Shown here: positions 15,417 to 22,066 of the stretch, one piece after another
Numbering within the stretch: the first letter of the stretch is position 1
Layout: each line of letters begins with the position of its first letter
From: Candidatus Enterousia sp.
GTDB lineage: Bacteria; Pseudomonadota; Alphaproteobacteria; Rs-D84
NCBI GenBank assembly: GCA_045645725.1
Contig: JAZRJG010000014.1
Location: 1-58,274, forward strand
Direction of reading: 5' to 3'
Length of the DNA stretch: 58,274 bases
Translations under genes and position numbers: made by a program
The notes under the pieces: generated by a model
Told to the model about the DNA's origin: nothing
Database searches by the model: none
Seen by the model: the letters and a program-made list of their open reading frames with translations, nothing else

Positions 15417-15992
15417 ATGGCAAAAAAGAGTAACATATTAAAAGAATTTAGTACTTTTGTTCAACGTGGAAATGCGATAGATATGGCGGTCGGTATCATT
15501 GTTGGTAGTGTTATGACCAGTGTTGTAAATTCTTTGGTAAAAGATGTTTTGATGCCGCCGATTGGGTTGCTGATTGGTGGTGTTGATTTTTCACAGTTGT
15601 TTGTTGCGTTGGATGGATCGGGGGCGCATTATGAAACGATTGCTGCGGCGCAGGCGGCCGGTGTTACCACGCTGAATTATGGTGTTTTTATGAATTCTGT
15701 GGTCAGTTTCTTTATCACGATGTTTGCAATATTCTTGTTTGTGCGTACGATGAATAAAATGCGCGATAAAAAGCCGGCTAATACACATGCATGTCCATAT
15801 TGTACGTCCAGTATCAGTAATGCGGCGACCAAATGTCCGTTCTGTTGTTCGGATGTAGAGCCGGTAAAGACAGGCGATGTTCAAGAAAGCGACTTGAAAA
15901 AAGGTATCAAAGAAGTGACTAAATTGGCGGCCGGTGTCGCAGATGGCGCTTTGGGTAAAATTAAGAAAATTAAAAAGATTACAAAGCGTTAA
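15417..15992 (+). CDS. mscL: large-conductance mechanosensitive channel with C-terminal zinc-ribbon extension
   Basis: The N-terminal ~120 aa carry MscL hallmarks (FVQRGNAIDMAVGIIVG..., LMPPIG). The extra ~65 aa tail contains CPYC-x12-CPFCC and a Lys-rich end. Confidence 0.85.
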   Translation: MAKKSNILKEFSTFVQRGNAIDMAVGIIVGSVMTSVVNSLVKDVLMPPIGLLIGGVDFSQLFVALDGSGAHYETIAAAQAAGVTTLNYGVFMNSVVSFFITMFAIFLFVRTMNKMRDKKPANTHACPYCTSSISNAATKCPFCCSDVEPVKTGDVQESDLKKGIKEVTKLAAGVADGALGKIKKIKKITKR

Positions 15993-16342: not shown

Positions 16343-16740
16343 CTGTCGTAAACGTATACATAACATAACAAAACAGAGTTCTGATGTTGTTTACTGTCGT
16401 AGACGTATACATAACATAACAGAGTTCTGATGTTATTTTCTGTCGTAAGCGTATGCATAATATAACAAATTTCTGGTGTTATTTTCTGTCGTAAGCGTAT
16501 GCGTAATATAACAGAGTTCTGGCGTTGTTTACTGTCGTAAATGTATACGTAACAAAACAAATTTCTGATGTTGTTTACTGTCGTAAGCGTATGCGTAATA
16601 TAACAGAGTTCTGGCGTTGTTTACTGACGCAAGCGTATGCATAATATAACAAATTTCTGGCGTTGTTTACTGTCGTAAGCGTATGCCATGTCATAACAAG
16701 TTGCTGGTGTTGTTTTTTTGTCGTGAACGTATGTATAAAT
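16343..16740. repeat. tandem array of 8-9 copies of a 46-bp unit (first copy 51 bp, last two degenerate)
   Basis: CTGTCGTAAGCGTATGC(A/G)TAATATAACA(GAG/AAT)TTCTGG(C/T)GTT(G/A)TTT(A/T). Unit starts are at 16343, 16394, 16440, 16486, 16532, 16578, 16624, 16670 and ~16719. The units at 16486 and 16578 are identical. Confidence 0.95.
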
Positions 16741-17122
16741 GTGTGTTGTTTTGTTGCTGTGGATTTGTGTGTTGTGTAAATGTGGCGAGTTGTGGATGGT
16801 ATTTGTGTGCGTGTGTGTGATGTGCTTTTGTGTTGTTTGGTGAAAACAAATGATTAAGTTTTATGTTTTATAATATGGTTTAATGTGTTTTGGTTGAAAA
16901 AATGTAAAAAATGCCCTGCTTTGGCCGTAAAAAAAGCAAAAAATGGCGGATTTCTGCGGTTTTTGGGTGTTTTTGGTGTCGGCGGGGCGTATTTTTAGTG
17001 TTTTTTGATGGGGTGGGTGGGCGTCAATGTACTTGTTTGTTAATTTGGGGCAATGCGCCCTGTCGTATGTTGATGTGTTTGATTAACAAGTGATAATAAT
17101 TGTTTGATTGTGGTTGTAAAAT

Positions 17123-17150
17123 AAAAAAACACGCCAATTGGCGTGTTTTT
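17123..17150 (-). terminator. rho-independent (bidirectional-looking) terminator ending the minus-strand four-gene operon
   Basis: A7-CACGCC-AATT-GGCGTG-T5. Confidence 0.75.
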
Positions 17151-17189
17151 ATCTGTGACGTTGGATTTTTGCAATTTTTTTACGATATT

Positions 17190-17486
17190 TTAGTGCTTCT
17201 TTTTTATGCTGTTTGGCTGTTTTATTTGCATAGTGTCCGCATACAAATAGTAATGCCCCGCCATTGCGCATCTGGTAAAGTGTGCGCTGTCTGGTGTGGG
17301 GCTTTGTTTGGTTAATGCCACCAATGTTGTAACCAATAATACAGATGCGTAACAATAAGCAATTGCGCCGGCGATGTTAGAGTGTCTGGCTTGGCGCATG
17401 ATATTTGATTGCAATGTGTCATATAGTTCGATTTTTGACATTTTGTCGTTATGTCTTTGGTATGGTTTTATCAGTTTATTTGTCAT
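17190..17486 (-). CDS. small hypothetical membrane protein (98 aa from the ATG; the track starts at an upstream TTG at 17498)
   Basis: One strongly hydrophobic segment, NIAGAIAYCYASVLLVTTLVAL. It is the last gene of a co-directional cluster. No motif recognised. Confidence 0.5.
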   Translation of the reverse strand: MTNKLIKPYQRHNDKMSKIELYDTLQSNIMRQARHSNIAGAIAYCYASVLLVTTLVALTKQSPTPDSAHFTRCAMAGHYYLYADTMQIKQPNSIKKKH

Positions 17487-17558
17487 CGTATTGTCCAATG
17501 GATTGAAAATGGGCGCGAACTGTGATGGTTTCCCGCCCTGCTTTTGTCGTTTTTCTTT

Positions 17559-17831
17559 TTAGCGAGAATTCTGTTTGTATTTGTCGCACATTGTTGCGAT
17601 TTGTGTTCCCAGACGTTGTGCCGATTTGAATGTTGGGCATGTGTATGGGAATATTACTTGGTGTGTGCCTTCGTGGTCGATATAGCATTTGATTACTTTG
17701 ATGCCGATTGTTGGATATACCACACCGTAATCATCGCGTATTGCGGATATGCGACATGCATGTGTGCAGCCCGTGCATGTGACGGGTGATAATGTTTCTT
17801 CGGTTTTTTTTAATTTTTCTTGTGTGAACAT
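17559..17831 (-). CDS. hypothetical protein with one copy of a novel Cys-rich ~75 aa domain
   Basis: 90 aa with an AGGAG ribosome-binding site. TCTGCTHACRISAIRDDYGVVYPTIGIKV...YTCPTFKSAQRLGTQIATMCDKYK aligns with both halves of the upstream gene's product. Confidence 0.7.
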   Translation of the reverse strand: MFTQEKLKKTEETLSPVTCTGCTHACRISAIRDDYGVVYPTIGIKVIKCYIDHEGTHQVIFPYTCPTFKSAQRLGTQIATMCDKYKQNSR

Positions 17832-17840
17832 GGGGTGCTC

Positions 17841-18422
17841 CTATTTTGTGTTTTCTTTATGTTTCAGACACATTTTGCAGATTTGGGTAGCCAAGACCTG
17901 GGCTGCTTGGAATGACGTGCATGTGTGGCTAAACACGACTTCACGTTTGGTGTTGATATTCCAGTATGTTCGGATTTTTACGCCTGCGATTGTTGGATAT
18001 ATGACGCCATTTTCATGTGTTGCGCGCAAATGACATTTGTTTAAACAGCCGTCGCAATGCATGTCGGACATTTTGCCTTCGATTGTGCGTGCCAATCTGG
18101 ATTGAGAGAAACCATTGTTTTTGTCTTTTCTTTCCCATGGTTTGTATAAGACGGTGCGCATTTTGTGATGATGGTCGCACAGATCGGCAACAGATGCCGC
18201 CATTTCTGTGCCTGCTTCGTAATCTTCTGTGTCGGCGATATGTTTTGTGCCATTTGTATCAATGTATGAATAAATTGGTGTGCCGGCAATTGTGGGTACA
18301 AATACATTGTAACCTTGTTGGGCGCTTAAAGTGCAATGTTTAGGACAGCCGTCGCACACCGGTTTGAATGATGTGTTTGGTTCTTGGACTGTCGGTTTTT
18401 CCGGATCTGTTTGTGTGAACAT
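17841..18422 (-). CDS. hypothetical protein with two tandem copies of the same novel Cys-rich domain
   Basis: 193 aa. VCDGCPKHCTLSAQQGYNVFVPTIAGTPI... and HCDGCLNKCHLRATHENGVIYPTIAGVKI...HTCTSFQAAQVLATQICKMCLKHK. Confidence 0.7.
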   Translation of the reverse strand: MFTQTDPEKPTVQEPNTSFKPVCDGCPKHCTLSAQQGYNVFVPTIAGTPIYSYIDTNGTKHIADTEDYEAGTEMAASVADLCDHHHKMRTVLYKPWERKDKNNGFSQSRLARTIEGKMSDMHCDGCLNKCHLRATHENGVIYPTIAGVKIRTYWNINTKREVVFSHTCTSFQAAQVLATQICKMCLKHKENTK

Positions 18423-18435
18423 TGTTATTCTCTTC

Positions 18436-18771
18436 TTATTTTGTTTTTTGTTGTTGTTTGATGCGTTCTATTTCGTTAACAATTGGCAACAACTGTTTTG
18501 CAGTTTTATTCATTTTGTGGAAATCAGAGCAACTTTTTGCAACGGCCAACAGTGCGATTGCAATCATGGTTATGCGGGTTTCGCGTGTTGTTGGTGTTGA
18601 AATTGGTGAATATGCCAATGCTGTCGATGCAGATGCCAATCCGCCTATCATTGCAAAGACAAAACTGGATATTTTGTGATACCCTGCTTTGCTTTGTAAA
18701 TCGGATGCGCGTGTTGATAATTGTTCGATTGCATATTCCGGATTTAATACCGTTCCATTGTTTTCTGTCAT
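18436..18771 (-). CDS. small two-TM membrane protein (111 aa)
   Basis: Start taken at MTENNG after an AAGGA ribosome-binding site. Two hydrophobic helices (ISSFVFAMIGGLASASTALA and ITMIAIALLAVA) are followed by a charged helix. Confidence 0.6.
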   Translation of the reverse strand: MTENNGTVLNPEYAIEQLSTRASDLQSKAGYHKISSFVFAMIGGLASASTALAYSPISTPTTRETRITMIAIALLAVAKSCSDFHKMNKTAKQLLPIVNEIERIKQQQKTK

Positions 18772-18871
18772 TATAACTTTTCCTTTTTTTGTTTTTCTGT
18801 TGATTAAGTATAGACCAAAGCGGACTGTTGTCAAGTTGACTTTGTTGTATTTGTTTGTTATTATAAAAAGT

Positions 18872-19582
18872 ATGAGATTAGATCAAGCATTGGTTCAACG
18901 GAATTTGTATTCTACACGTGCACGTGCGGTGGCTGCGATTGATGCGGGGTTGGTGACGGTTAATGGCGTGTCTGCCAAGAAACCAAGTCAGCAGGTTTCT
19001 GATACAGATGTCATTGTTGGGGGTGATTTGCCCTATTCCACCGGTCGCGGCAGTTTGAAGTTGGCGCATGCGTTACAGTATTTTGGTGTTAATCCGTCTG
19101 GGATGGCGTGTTTGGATGTTGGTGCCAGTACGGGTGGTTTTACCGAAGTTTTATTGCGTAATGGTGCGGCCCGTGTGTATGCGGTGGACGTTGGTACGAA
19201 CCAATTGGTTGAAGAATTGCGCAATGATGTGCGTGTGGTTTCTTTGGAACAGACCGATATTCGTGACCTGCCCCCGCAGTCGGTGGTGGATTTGGTTGTT
19301 ATTGACGTTTCGTTTATATCATTGACCAACATTGTGGATGCGGTGGTTCGTTGGGGGGCGGATACAATTATTGCGTTGATAAAACCTCAATTCGAAGTGC
19401 CCCGTGATGTGGCAGCAAAGTTTAATGGTGTAATCAGGTCGGATGAATGGCATGATTGGGCCGTAAATCAAGTTGTTGAATGTTTTGCTAAATCCGGATT
19501 TCGATTGCGTGGGGTAACCCAATCGCCAATTATGGGCGGCAGCGGAAATGTCGAATTTTTGGCGTGCTTTTCAAAAAATTAA
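18872..19582 (+). CDS. tlyA: TlyA-family rRNA 2'-O-methyltransferase (S4 domain + FtsJ-like methyltransferase)
   Basis: Start at MRLDQALVQRNL... (S4-like). LDVGASTGGFTEVLL SAM-binding motif. 236 aa. Confidence 0.85.
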   Translation: MRLDQALVQRNLYSTRARAVAAIDAGLVTVNGVSAKKPSQQVSDTDVIVGGDLPYSTGRGSLKLAHALQYFGVNPSGMACLDVGASTGGFTEVLLRNGAARVYAVDVGTNQLVEELRNDVRVVSLEQTDIRDLPPQSVVDLVVIDVSFISLTNIVDAVVRWGADTIIALIKPQFEVPRDVAAKFNGVIRSDEWHDWAVNQVVECFAKSGFRLRGVTQSPIMGGSGNVEFLACFSKN

Positions 19583-19669
19583 TTAAATTTAATCAAATAG
19601 TTTCTTGAATTTGTGGCGAATTGTGGCTAAAATTCGCCGGCATATTAAATAATACAATAGGATGATACA

Positions 19670-22066
19670 ATGGCAGAAGATATCAAAAAAGTGCATGAAC
19701 GTGAAGCCAAATGGCAGAAAAAATGGCAAGAATCCGGTGTGTTTACACCAAAAAATGATGGTTCGAAAACACCATTTTATATGTTGGCAGAATTTCCATT
19801 TCCGTCGGGTACGGGGTTGCATGGTGGGCATATGTTGAATTATACGGGATGTGACGTGATGGCGCGTTTCCGTCGTATGCAGGGTTTTGATGTTCTGTAT
19901 CCATTGGGATTTGATTCATTGGGGATTTCTGCGGAAAACTATGCGACAAAAATCGGGCGTCATCCATCGGTTGTTGTTCGTGAATTGGCAGAAAAATTTA
20001 CAAAAAATATGTTGGATATGGGGTGGTCTATTGATTTAAATGCCCAAGTTGCAACGTCGGATCCGGAATTTATTAAATGGACCCAATGGATGTTCATTCA
20101 ATTCTTTAATGCGGGATTGGCGTATAAATCTATGTTGCCAATGAATTGGTGTCCAAAATGCCGTACCACATTGACCAACGAAGAATTAGAAGATGGAAAA
20201 TGTAATCGTTGTCATGGTGAAGTGGAAGTGCGTGAAAAAATGCAATGGAATTTGGCGATTACTAAATATGCGGATAAATTGCTGGATGGGTTGAATTTGG
20301 TTGATTATCCCGAAAAAGTAAAACGTGATCAGATTAACTGGATTGGGCGTTCAACCGGTGCAGACGTGGACTTTATGGTTGGTGATGATAAAATGACCGT
20401 TTATACGACACGTGTCGATACTATATTTGGTGTCACGTTCTGTGCCATTGCGCCGGAACATAAATTGTTGGCCAAATGGTTGGATGAAGGCAAGATTACA
20501 AATGCCGATGCGGTGCGTGAATATATTAAACAGTCGGCCGCAAAATCAGAATTTGACAGAACAGACGCGACCAAAGAAAAAACGGGTGTGAAATTAGAAG
20601 GTATTATGGCGAAAAATCCATATACAGAAACAGAAATTCCGGTTTTTGTTGCGGACTATGTTTTGGTTAATTATGCACATGGTACGATTATGGCGGTGCC
20701 GGCCCATGACGAACGTGACTGGGACTTTGCCAAGAAATTTAATTTGGATGTAATACCGGTCTTGGCGGGTGGCGAAGCCGATAAAGTATGGGTTGGTGAT
20801 GGCGAGCATATCAATTCTGACTTCTTGAACGGTATGGGCAAAGCAGATGCGATTGCCGCTGCAATCAAGGTTGGAGAAGAACGTGATTTTGCGCGACCAA
20901 AAGTTCGCTATCGTATGGGCGATTGGGGATTTTCGCGTCAAATGTATTGGGGTGAACCTATTCCGTTGGTGTATTGTGAAAAATGTGGATGGGTGCCTGT
21001 GCCAGAATCTGAATTGCCATTAATGCAACCACACATGGAAGATTTCAGACCAACCGAAGATGGGGAATCGCCATTGGCACGTGCAACAGATTGGGTTAAT
21101 ACAACATGTCCACATTGTGGTGCGGTGGCAAAACGTGAAACCGATACTATGCCACAATGGGCGGGTTCATCTTGGTATTATCTGAGATACTTAGACCCAC
21201 GTAATAACGATGCGTTTTGTTCGGCCGAACAAATGGCAAAGTGGATGCCGGTTGGGCATTATAATGGTGGCAATGAACACAATACACGTCACTTGATTTA
21301 TTCGCGTTTTTGGCATCGTGCTTTGTTTGATTTGGGGCATGTTAATACGCCGGAACCATATCATAAACGTACGACCAATGGTTTGCTGATGGGAACCGAT
21401 GGTAAAAAAATGTCGAAATCTGCCGGTAATGGTTTCCAAGTTGATGAAAAATTGGCCGAAGTTGGTGCGGATGCGGCGCGTACGACGGTGTTGTCTTTGG
21501 GGCCATGGGATTCCAATGTAAATTGGTCCGAAGGTGCATTGGCCGGTGTTCAACGTTTCTTGAAACGTGTTGAAGGTTTGGCGGACAATTTGACCGATGA
21601 CGCAATGACGGCAGACCAAGAACGTTTGGTGCATCGTTTGATTGCCGATATGACAGAGCGTTTGGATGGTATGAAGTACAATACGGCAATTTCCGCAATG
21701 ATGGAATTTATTAATGCGTTTGCGGGTTCTATGCCCCGCCCTGCGTATGAAGTATTGTTACAGATGTTAAATCCATTTGCGCCGCATTTGACCGAAGAAA
21801 TGTGGGAAAAAATGGGTCATGCGGATATGTTGGTATTTCAGCCATGGCCGACATTTGATGCCGCAAAATTGGTCGAAACCGAAAAAACAATTGTTGTATC
21901 TGTGAACGGTAAACGTGCGGCGGATTTTGTTGTGCCGGCCGATGCGGATGAAGAAGCAATTGTCGCGGCGGCCAAAACGGCGGCGGCCCACAGATTGGAT
22001 GGGGCGACGATTGTGAAAACGATTGTTGTACCAAATAAATTGGTTAACTTTGTTATCAAGAAATAA
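19670..22066 (+). CDS. leuS: leucine--tRNA ligase
   Basis: 798 aa. HGGHMLNY (HIGH-like), KMSKS, and a zinc-knuckle CPKC...CNRC in the CP1 region. Confidence 0.95.
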   Translation: MAEDIKKVHEREAKWQKKWQESGVFTPKNDGSKTPFYMLAEFPFPSGTGLHGGHMLNYTGCDVMARFRRMQGFDVLYPLGFDSLGISAENYATKIGRHPSVVVRELAEKFTKNMLDMGWSIDLNAQVATSDPEFIKWTQWMFIQFFNAGLAYKSMLPMNWCPKCRTTLTNEELEDGKCNRCHGEVEVREKMQWNLAITKYADKLLDGLNLVDYPEKVKRDQINWIGRSTGADVDFMVGDDKMTVYTTRVDTIFGVTFCAIAPEHKLLAKWLDEGKITNADAVREYIKQSAAKSEFDRTDATKEKTGVKLEGIMAKNPYTETEIPVFVADYVLVNYAHGTIMAVPAHDERDWDFAKKFNLDVIPVLAGGEADKVWVGDGEHINSDFLNGMGKADAIAAAIKVGEERDFARPKVRYRMGDWGFSRQMYWGEPIPLVYCEKCGWVPVPESELPLMQPHMEDFRPTEDGESPLARATDWVNTTCPHCGAVAKRETDTMPQWAGSSWYYLRYLDPRNNDAFCSAEQMAKWMPVGHYNGGNEHNTRHLIYSRFWHRALFDLGHVNTPEPYHKRTTNGLLMGTDGKKMSKSAGNGFQVDEKLAEVGADAARTTVLSLGPWDSNVNWSEGALAGVQRFLKRVEGLADNLTDDAMTADQERLVHRLIADMTERLDGMKYNTAISAMMEFINAFAGSMPRPAYEVLLQMLNPFAPHLTEEMWEKMGHADMLVFQPWPTFDAAKLVETEKTIVVSVNGKRAADFVVPADADEEAIVAAAKTAAAHRLDGATIVKTIVVPNKLVNFVIKK

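Follow-up and report, generated by a model that had tools for sequence, protein, structure and literature searches.

Ogr and Delta are Cys4 zinc-finger activators of P2/P4-type elements, and the Delta protein of the P4 element is a fused tandem of two Ogr-like domains. SLATT_1 and SLATT_2 proteins are conflict effectors in which a helix, a transmembrane (TM) segment, a short loop, a second TM segment and a further helix follow one another. In toxin-antitoxin (TA) pairs with a membrane toxin, including those of the Panacea (SocA-like) type, small co-transcribed genes, one of them encoding a membrane protein, have a patchy accessory distribution. These are the closest described systems to a four-gene operon, here called P1 to P4, on the minus strand of a 58,274-nucleotide contig of Candidatus Enterousia sp. 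(JAZRJG010000014.1 of assembly GCA_045645725.1, contig C14 of its genome; the whole contig is referred to as the window). P1 and P4 are hairpin membrane proteins with two TM segments (2TM) and basic cytoplasmic tails, and P2 and P3 between them carry three copies of a domain with four conserved cysteines (Cys4). The genus comprises uncultured alphaproteobacteria of the order Rs-D84, known from published metagenome-assembled genomes (MAGs) of 0.75-1.0 Mb from the guts of farm animals, which were described as being without a tricarboxylic acid cycle and respiratory chains (PMC12306168).

Compared with these systems, the locus is similar in outline and different in composition. Like Ogr and Delta, the Cys4 proteins are small and basic, carry four cysteines and occur both singly (P3) and as a fused tandem (P2), and elsewhere in the genus family genes are found in the context of a P4-type integrase. 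Unlike Ogr and Delta, which have a Cx2C...Cx4C spacing, the family has a 3+1 arrangement of CxGCx3C plus a distal cysteine, is massively paralogous, has a membrane protein as its putative partner, and shows no sequence or fold match to them. P1 and P4 share with SLATT_1/2 effectors their size, their order of polar helix, TM segment, short loop, TM segment and helix, and weak but recurrent matches, whereas the window operon is without a nucleotide-signalling or sensor enzyme and its partners belong to an unrelated Cys4 family. The likeness to membrane-toxin TA pairs lies in the small co-transcribed genes, the membrane protein, the patchy distribution and Panacea-like tails on other proteins at the same chromosomal slot; the similarity to Panacea is not significant, the pairing is facultative, and toxicity and neutralisation are only proposed here. 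What is new is the unannotated family, its predicted fold and its pairing with 2TM proteins at the tlyA slot.

As a description, it is very probable that the locus is a real, accessory operon with fast turnover, that it encodes a pair of hairpin membrane proteins and, in two further proteins, three domains of a Cys4 family that is new and confined to the genus, and that it is set in a conserved variable slot. A preliminary description, made from the sequence of the window, had read four tightly packed minus-strand genes with good ribosome-binding sites and a strong terminator, and the open reading frames (ORFs), their spacing (13, 9 and 60 nt from P1 to P4), the purine-rich ribosome-binding sites and the terminator (Table 1) bear this out. 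The operon has its own near-consensus promoter upstream of P1 (18834-18807) and is therefore transcriptionally self-contained. P1-P3 are under purifying selection that is relaxed relative to the neighbouring core genes, with dN/dS values of 0.29-0.38 as against 0.04-0.10 for LeuRS and TlyA. Non-coding or decaying ORFs were considered and rejected on the strength of a dN/dS of 0.3-0.4 and family-wide conservation. One gut metatranscriptome yielded a 180-nt contig on P1 (18523-18702) and none on the adjacent core genes, which is a hint of expression rather than proof of it.

The three copies of the Cys4 domain, two in P2 and one that makes up P3, align collinearly. P3 matches the C-terminal half of P2 with an E value of 5e-17 at 40% identity, and the N-terminal half with an E value of 3e-6, so the two copies of the P3 domain that had been noticed in the 193-aa protein are indeed present; the internal duplication that was offered to explain them is not a recent one. 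In the domain tree, where support is only modest (0.71 and 0.58), the C-terminal domain of P2 stands beside P3, and the N-terminal domain groups in a different clade with the long fusions of other species. Because its domains fall in separate clades, P2 is a fusion of two diverged paralogues. In two-domain proteins of the family G-F-(S/T)-Q stands before the second domain, as a relic of the start of a once-separate gene.

The family signature reads MSFTQ(E/K)-x~8-C-x-G-C-x3-C ... YPTIxG ... I..Y ... A..IAKLCDHYKTR-stop. Cysteines 7, 10, 14 and 70 are invariant in an alignment of 14 paralogous domains, and in a second alignment of 131 single-domain family proteins the three cysteines of CxGCx3C are invariant and the C-terminal cysteine, that of LCDHYK, is conserved in at least 90%. 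The start M-x(0-3)-F-x-Q is seen in 90 of the 131 proteins, and in 66 the last cysteine is followed by exactly six residues. The metal-binding module that had been proposed from CxGCxxxC and a distal C...C spacing is retained here as a metal-site cysteine pattern, with a different fourth position: the distal HTC/YTC cysteine is a mark of the P3 subfamily only, and the family as a whole uses the cysteine of LCDHYK. Four conserved candidate metal ligands, as structural Cys4 zinc modules have, are present in the family, and the 3+1 cysteines that join both conserved ends have the look of a structural zinc clasp, although an iron-sulphur (Fe-S) cluster would also be compatible with the sequence. 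With a median pI of 8.7, polar N-termini of the MSFTQ type and no signal-like hydrophobic start, the family proteins are small, basic and cytoplasmic.

Iterated hidden Markov model searches of six-frame ORFs found ~16-17 copies of the domain in the genome to which the window belongs (on contigs C14, C21, C27, C29, C7 and C17), together with two knuckle-only fragments on C10. A profile search of 1.84 billion representative proteins gave at least 219 clusters (50% identity), of which 83 reach E <=1e-10; the clusters are mostly of 80-120 aa and some have two domains. Of 301 genomes drawn from the order, 81 carried the family, and of 301 drawn from the class, 2 did; every positive genome in these samples belongs to a single genus, Ca. 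Enterousia (1 of the 29 genera in the order sample and 1 of the 253 in the class sample). Copy number ranges from 1 to 18 per positive genome, and from 0 to 18 across congeners.

No above-noise match for any of P1-P4 was found in Pfam, NCBIfam, PHROGs or PADLOC, and scans of these libraries that included the orthologues from genomes G021 and G145 returned sub-threshold noise only. No library model matches more than one of the 131 family members, and a sequence-profile search of the PDB gave nothing significant, its best match being a ferredoxin (E 0.35). The domain thus stands as unannotated, as first supposed, and the profile match to a housekeeping family that would have spoken against its novelty was absent from the family-library scans. 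An AlphaFold2 model of P3, built on the 131-sequence alignment, is of fair quality (predicted local distance difference test (pLDDT) 80.6, predicted template-modelling score 0.65) and consists of four short strands followed by two C-terminal helices, with the N-terminal 20 residues less confident. The Foldseek comparison that had been suggested for the domain was run on this model and found no match in the PDB (best E 1.3, to RbpA with a probability of 0.15) or among the viral models of BFVD (best E 0.6), with template-modelling scores of ~0.2-0.3, nor any superposition on a known zinc-finger group (zinc ribbon, treble clef or rubredoxin-like knuckles).

P1 consists of a polar N-terminal helix, two hydrophobic segments (residues 34-54 and 65-84) with a short loop between them, and a basic C-terminal helix, and has a pI of 9.6; its orthologue in G021 is 42% identical and stands in the same operon. 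The gene order and the sizes first given for P1 (111 aa, 2TM), P2 (193 aa) and P3 (90 aa) hold, whereas the one-TM P4 of ~98 aa is the product of a frameshift. Two extra G residues at 17258-59, within a G run, are absent from the 96.5%-identical genome G145 (the record L021) and from 4 of 4 metagenome strains. When they are removed, the frame reaches 17149, abuts the terminator and acquires a basic tail and another hydrophobic segment, so the intact 115-aa P4 is a second hairpin protein. The orthologue of P4 in G021, which is 38% identical, has hydrophobic segments at residues 52-77 and 87-103 and likewise a basic tail. The form read in the window reflects either a lesion of this strain or an error in a homopolymer; further extra homopolymer bases occur in the assembly at ~18784 and 17129 relative to all other strains and contigs examined, which makes an assembly error plausible.

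Neither P1 nor P4 has a paralogue in its own genome, and a word-index search of 5.8 billion sequences for homologues of P1 returned a 96%-identical copy as its sole match. The two membrane proteins show no pairwise BLASTP similarity to each other, and an hhalign comparison of their subfamilies aligns only 25 columns, over the first TM segment. Several species also have one small gene, or two, for a hairpin membrane protein of like architecture between tlyA and leuS (L109, G004:C8; L110, G006:C15; L057, G015:C21; L067, G093:C3). The P4 profile missed some of the tlyA-leuS hairpin genes, and the 2TM family therefore extends beyond the 21 of 257 genomes of the genus in which P4-like genes were counted.

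The operon is a species-variable accessory unit in a hypervariable slot around tlyA, between mscL and leuS. This agrees with the accessory gap of the preliminary description: P1-like genes occur in 4 of the 257 genus genomes, and the slot is empty in some congeners (G003 and G014). From species to species the slot holds differing combinations of Cys-protein and 2TM genes. In G021 the order is P1-P2-P3-(extra 139-aa gene)-P4, beside tlyA-leuS, at only 39-51% identity to the window for P1 and P3. Among 20 loci with a P1- or P4-like gene, 13 have a family member within ~1.5 kb, and in 6 the Cys gene is directly adjacent on the same strand, usually as the first of the two; 17 of the 20 loci fetched occupy the mscL-tlyA-leuS position. 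In G168 a rearrangement has left a P1-like/Cys pair next to tlyA and, apart from it, a Cys/P4-like pair next to mscL. Since the two halves stand apart as Cys/2TM pairs, the four-gene operon would seem to be made of two two-gene units. Between tlyA and mscL of this genome (G168:C6, L072/L073) lie ~22 kb of core genes, among them hisS, prfA and uvrA as read from ORF translations; a 22-kb island inserted in the operon was considered and rejected, since it is the rearrangement that puts core genes between the halves. As to whether the four genes travel together, the order is kept at low identity in G021, while the pairing is facultative and the set is split in G168.

Two further findings bear on the association of Cys domains with this slot. 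The P4 orthologue of G021 carries a mini-knuckle, CNGCAKQC...C..H, fused at its N-terminus, which scores 15.5 bits against the family model. Slot-resident Cys domains also cluster apart from the copies in tRNA-associated arrays, with 6 label changes on the tree as against 17.7 in shuffles (0 of 2000 as low). Synonymous divergence between the window and G021 differs from gene to gene, with dS values of 0.31 for P2, 0.73 for LeuRS, 0.85 for TlyA, 1.62 for P3 and 1.66 for P1, and this mosaic across P1-P3 and the flanks indicates that the operon genes have different histories.

We propose that the three N-terminal cysteines and the single C-terminal one clasp one metal ion, most likely Zn(II). The metal would tie together the conserved ends of a ~75-residue beta-hairpin/two-helix module, with the variable middle as its binding surface. 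The Cys modules would act as cytoplasmic adaptors or neutralisers of the adjacent hairpin proteins, in the pairs P1-P2 and P3-P4, and together the four products would form a membrane-associated, dispensable module of conflict type (TA, exclusion or abortive infection) rather than a housekeeping unit. A conflict or addiction role is preferred to housekeeping because of the patchy distribution, the strand placement, the island contexts and the turnover. This partnership of Cys modules with 2TM proteins, with its conflict role, is offered tentatively and as having clearly less than an even chance; description and mechanism taken as one statement come somewhat nearer to even and still fall below it.

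Several observations weigh against the proposed mechanism. PADLOC gave no match to known defence or TA models. The N-terminal 20 residues of the P3 model, which include the knuckle, have a pLDDT of only 55-78. P4 is broken in the window while P3 is intact, and a strict TA pair more often loses both genes, or the antitoxin last; the pattern is still compatible with a toxin-first loss. At the tlyA locus 2TM genes occur without a Cys gene in G006, L058, L060, L061 and L064, which makes the pairing facultative, and a 2TM neighbour is lacking for most family members, both in the tRNA-island arrays and where copies are inserted among core genes. In addition, almost every co-occurrence is at a single orthologous position (17 of the 20 loci), and shared ancestry, rather than function, could explain part of the linkage. 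The search for defence islands or prophages that had been recommended found no defence gene near the operon and no PHROG match; other arrays of the family do lie beside restriction-modification and reverse-transcriptase genes.

The locus is of interest whichever way the mechanism is decided. Gut bacteria that have reduced genomes and depend on partners retain very few genes that they could do without, yet the genus devotes up to ~18 to one orphan family and a dedicated variable slot at tlyA. The family is also a well-defined target, with ~75 residues, four conserved cysteines, a fair AlphaFold model without a fold match and at least 219 clusters. Once worked out, its metal, its partners and its link to the hairpin proteins would tell how these uncultured organisms handle conflict with phages, mobile elements or neighbouring cells, and would give the catalogue of small metal-binding folds a new entry. 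Should the 2TM linkage prove functional, the operon would be a two-component membrane module of a new kind; otherwise, what is left is still a clean description of a lineage-specific family and a recombination hot spot.

At other sites in the genus 5-7 family genes stand in tandem, separated by spacers of 11-15 nt, and the junctions of these arrays read ...AAAACACGATAA-AGGAAA-N5-ATGTCATTTACACAG. Stop codon, ribosome-binding site and start are tightly packed in these arrays, as ACACGATAA-AGGAAA-N5-ATG, and embedded unrelated genes likewise end in -KTR. Three arrays (L024, G021:C19, 2508-4723; L023, G019:C7, 963-4028; L022, G004:C11, 9867-11950) are interleaved with genes for a conserved 139-aa protein, a 126-aa lipoprotein and a 127-133-aa one-TM protein. 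Names of neighbouring genes come from a reading of ORF translations: the arrays adjoin a tRNA gene and helix-turn-helix genes, and have as further neighbours a restriction-modification pair (G004) and a reverse transcriptase with an aminoglycoside phosphotransferase (G019). A wider form of the proposal would make the family a genus-specific cytoplasmic repertoire of up to ~18 metal-clasped mini-proteins per genome, with invariant ends and hypervariable middles, which serve as exchangeable modules of specificity, dock on hairpin membrane proteins and other partners and are swapped as cassettes between species by way of their conserved ends. Cassette-wise swapping is consistent with the mosaic of dS values within the operon, and the repertoire as a whole is an unlikely, speculative extension.

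The strongest competing explanation is a regulatory one. The Cys4 proteins could be small zinc-finger regulators of mobile or variable islands that bind RNA polymerase or nucleic acid in the manner of Ogr/Delta, with the 2TM genes as unrelated residents of a hot spot. The size, basic character, four cysteines and single and tandem-fused forms already described would suit such regulators, as would the helix-turn-helix, tRNA and P4-type (Arm-DNA-bind_3) integrase genes next to the arrays, the RNA-polymerase-binding RbpA as the weak top fold match (probability 0.15), and the occurrence of 2TM and Cys genes each without the other. Against this, neither Pfam Ogr_Delta nor any other DNA-binding model was matched among the 131 members, the fold matches are not significant (E >1), and the knuckle-2TM fusion in the P4 protein of G021 and the kept order of Cys gene before 2TM gene argue for a membrane partner. 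We regard a regulatory role of this kind as doubtful, and as less probable than the partnership with the hairpin proteins.

It is unlikely that P1, and with it P4, are two-helix pore-forming defence effectors of SLATT type for which the Cys proteins serve as sensors or regulators. Three divergent 2TM proteins of the slot match SLATT models weakly: P1 of the window matches SLATT_1 at E 0.006, a protein of G093 matches SLATT_1 at E 0.011, and P4 of G021 matches SLATT_2 at E 0.083. These values lie far under the curated cut-offs, P1 scoring 16.5 bits against a cut-off of 41 (SLATT_1, NF033634) and the G021 protein 12.5 against 40 (SLATT_2, NF033633); the Pfam models SLATT_1-6 found no match, P1 of G021 had none, and PADLOC returned nothing. 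When an alignment of 23 slot 2TM sequences was compared by hhalign with 8 genuine SLATT_1 domains from other genomes, 86 columns aligned collinearly with a score of 27.0 (probability 41%, P 2.8e-4), while reversed controls reached 24.4 and 23.8 and the block-shuffle maximum was 18.5. P1 was not filed as SLATT because the real score barely exceeds the reversed controls. Two TM helices flanked by cytoplasmic helices are present in P1 and in P4 of G021, as in SLATT proteins, and this feature is a generic one. The resemblance of P1 that had first been remarked is upheld as one of architecture, and membership in the family is not. Nor is there a SMODS, SLOG, cyclase, reverse-transcriptase or other sensor gene in or beside the window operon, whose neighbours are mscL, a repeat tract, tlyA and leuS.

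A further lead toward conflict systems comes from the same slot in G015, G093 and G113, which encode proteins of 270-318 aa made of a Cys domain and a tail with the motif KLLYL...AW.YGP. SocA/Panacea models match this tail weakly (E 0.004-0.05), and the 270-aa relatives score 14.9 bits against a cut-off of 25.7 (Pfam PF13274) and 16.8 against 190 (NCBIfam NF047745). The similarity of the tail to Panacea is not significant: an hhalign comparison with 16 genuine domains gave 23.6 against a block-shuffle maximum of 23.1 (probability 10.7%), and only a 40-column motif aligned. For the 270-aa fusion AlphaFold2 gave an unusable model (pLDDT 42.8), a tblastn search of phage genomes with the tail found no match, and the similarity is absent from P2 and P3 of the window. 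The Panacea-like tail of the 270-318-aa proteins may be regarded as a lead.

Metal chemistry provides another alternative, in which the Cys domain would bind an Fe-S cluster or another redox-active or trafficked metal and the operon would be a small membrane-associated redox or metal-handling unit. The CxxCx3C triad and the distal cysteine could ligate a 4Fe-4S cluster, a histidine often follows the last cysteine (CDHY), one family member weakly matches Fer4_20 (E 0.0085), and the ferredoxin noted above was the best, insignificant, PDB match (E 0.35). Significant similarity to Fe-S families was not found, a copy number of 0-18 between species and a hypervariable middle are unlike metabolic cofactor proteins, and the organism was described as being without respiratory chains (PMC12306168), all of which makes this reading very unlikely.

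A phage origin for the membrane genes is less probable again. In that case the 2TM proteins would be relics of class II holins and antiholins from a prophage lysis cassette, and the Cys genes would be phage moron genes. A length of ~95-135 aa, two TM segments, a highly basic C-terminal tail and the presence of two such genes in one operon would fit class II holins. The surroundings contain no endolysin or spanin and no gene for phage structure or replication, P1-P4 have no PHROG match, the P3 model matches no viral fold, and in many species the site is a fixed position in the chromosome flanked by core genes; a lysis cassette is accordingly highly improbable. That the small Cys-rich products are precursors of ribosomally synthesised and post-translationally modified peptides is barely credible, since a leader-like MSFTQ motif, tandem arrays and a weak match of P3 to the FibroRumin Cys-rich model TIGR04135 (E 0.031, 14.3 against 45 bits) are set against the lack of a radical-SAM enzyme, protease or exporter gene beside any array examined, proteins of 80-120 aa that are predicted to be folded (pLDDT 80.6), and cysteines conserved in a 3+1 metal-site pattern.

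Table 1. Positions of the operon, its signals and its flanking genes in the window.
Feature	Position	Strand	Remarks
Promoter	18807..18834	-	sigma-70-type, TTGACA-16-TATACT, 11/12 consensus; ~36 nt upstream of P1 start
P1	18436..18771	-	111 aa from ATG; membrane hairpin; ORF and hydropathy
P2	17841..18422	-	193 aa; two Cys4 domains; ORF
P2 domain 1	18117..18422	-	~residues 1-102; subfamily shared with long Panacea-like-tail fusions
P2 domain 2	17841..18110	-	~residues 105-193 and stop codon; preceded by GFSQ; sister of P3
P3	17559..17831	-	90 aa; single Cys4 domain (MFTQ...CTGCTHAC...YPTIG...MCDKYKQNSR)
P4 as read in the window	17190-17498	-	102 aa from TTG; 98 aa from ATG at 17486
P4, intact allele	17149..17498	-	115 aa; ends ...KKIAKIQRHR; stop at 17149; other strains
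Intrinsic terminator	17125..17150	-	11-bp stem and T run; abuts intact-P4 stop codon
mscL	15417-15992		on the P4 side of the operon; ~1.1 kb of non-coding DNA between
tlyA-leuS	~18870-22066		on the P1 side of the operon

The window contig is part of a 0.95-Mb genome that is 93% complete. The operon is found in public gut and bovine-gut metagenome runs, and a copy of P2 at 94% identity is present in a Candidatus Enterousia MAG. The plus strand has a very strong G+C skew around the operon (~+0.2 to +0.4), and the surrounding ORFs of at least 110 aa are mostly on the plus strand, the operon itself being on the minus, C-rich strand. All 8 family genes of this genome with strongly skewed flanks (on C14, C21 and C7) are on the C-rich strand, opposite most genes, a placement that is probably head-on to replication. 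Family members on the opposite strand, between core genes, were also seen at C21:56136-62202 of the same genome and at L033, in a neighbourhood with lepA, a P4-type integrase, an acyl carrier protein (ACP), fabF and an AMP-ligase. In two database relatives (P0043 and P0059) the N-terminus is extended by an ACP-like segment that weakly matches PP-binding (E 0.023).

The non-coding tract on the P4 side contains a 46-bp tandem array of 8 copies (16364-16738). Relatives have arrays of other periods (48-83 bp) at the same position, between mscL and the P4-side gene, and the arrays of the window and of the relatives share a common core, ~ATATTATGyATACGyTTrC. Because relatives hold core-sharing arrays at the same place, the tract is a conserved element of the slot rather than a peculiarity of the strain. 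A ~37-nt element nearby (16938-16974) is matched by many otherwise unrelated metagenome contigs before they diverge, with loose ends at 16964-16974, and recurs in G021 on the downstream side of the operon; it could be a dispersed short repeat or mark the edge of the variable segment. One metagenome contig bridges 16963 to 18871 with 92 other bases and would represent an allele of a related strain without the entire operon; with only 26 bases on one side it is weakly supported. MscL of the window has a C-terminal CPYC...CPFCC extension with a Lys-rich tail (15792-15992), which is conserved in the genus, as it is also present in MscL of the congeners at L057, L109, L110, L112 and L113.

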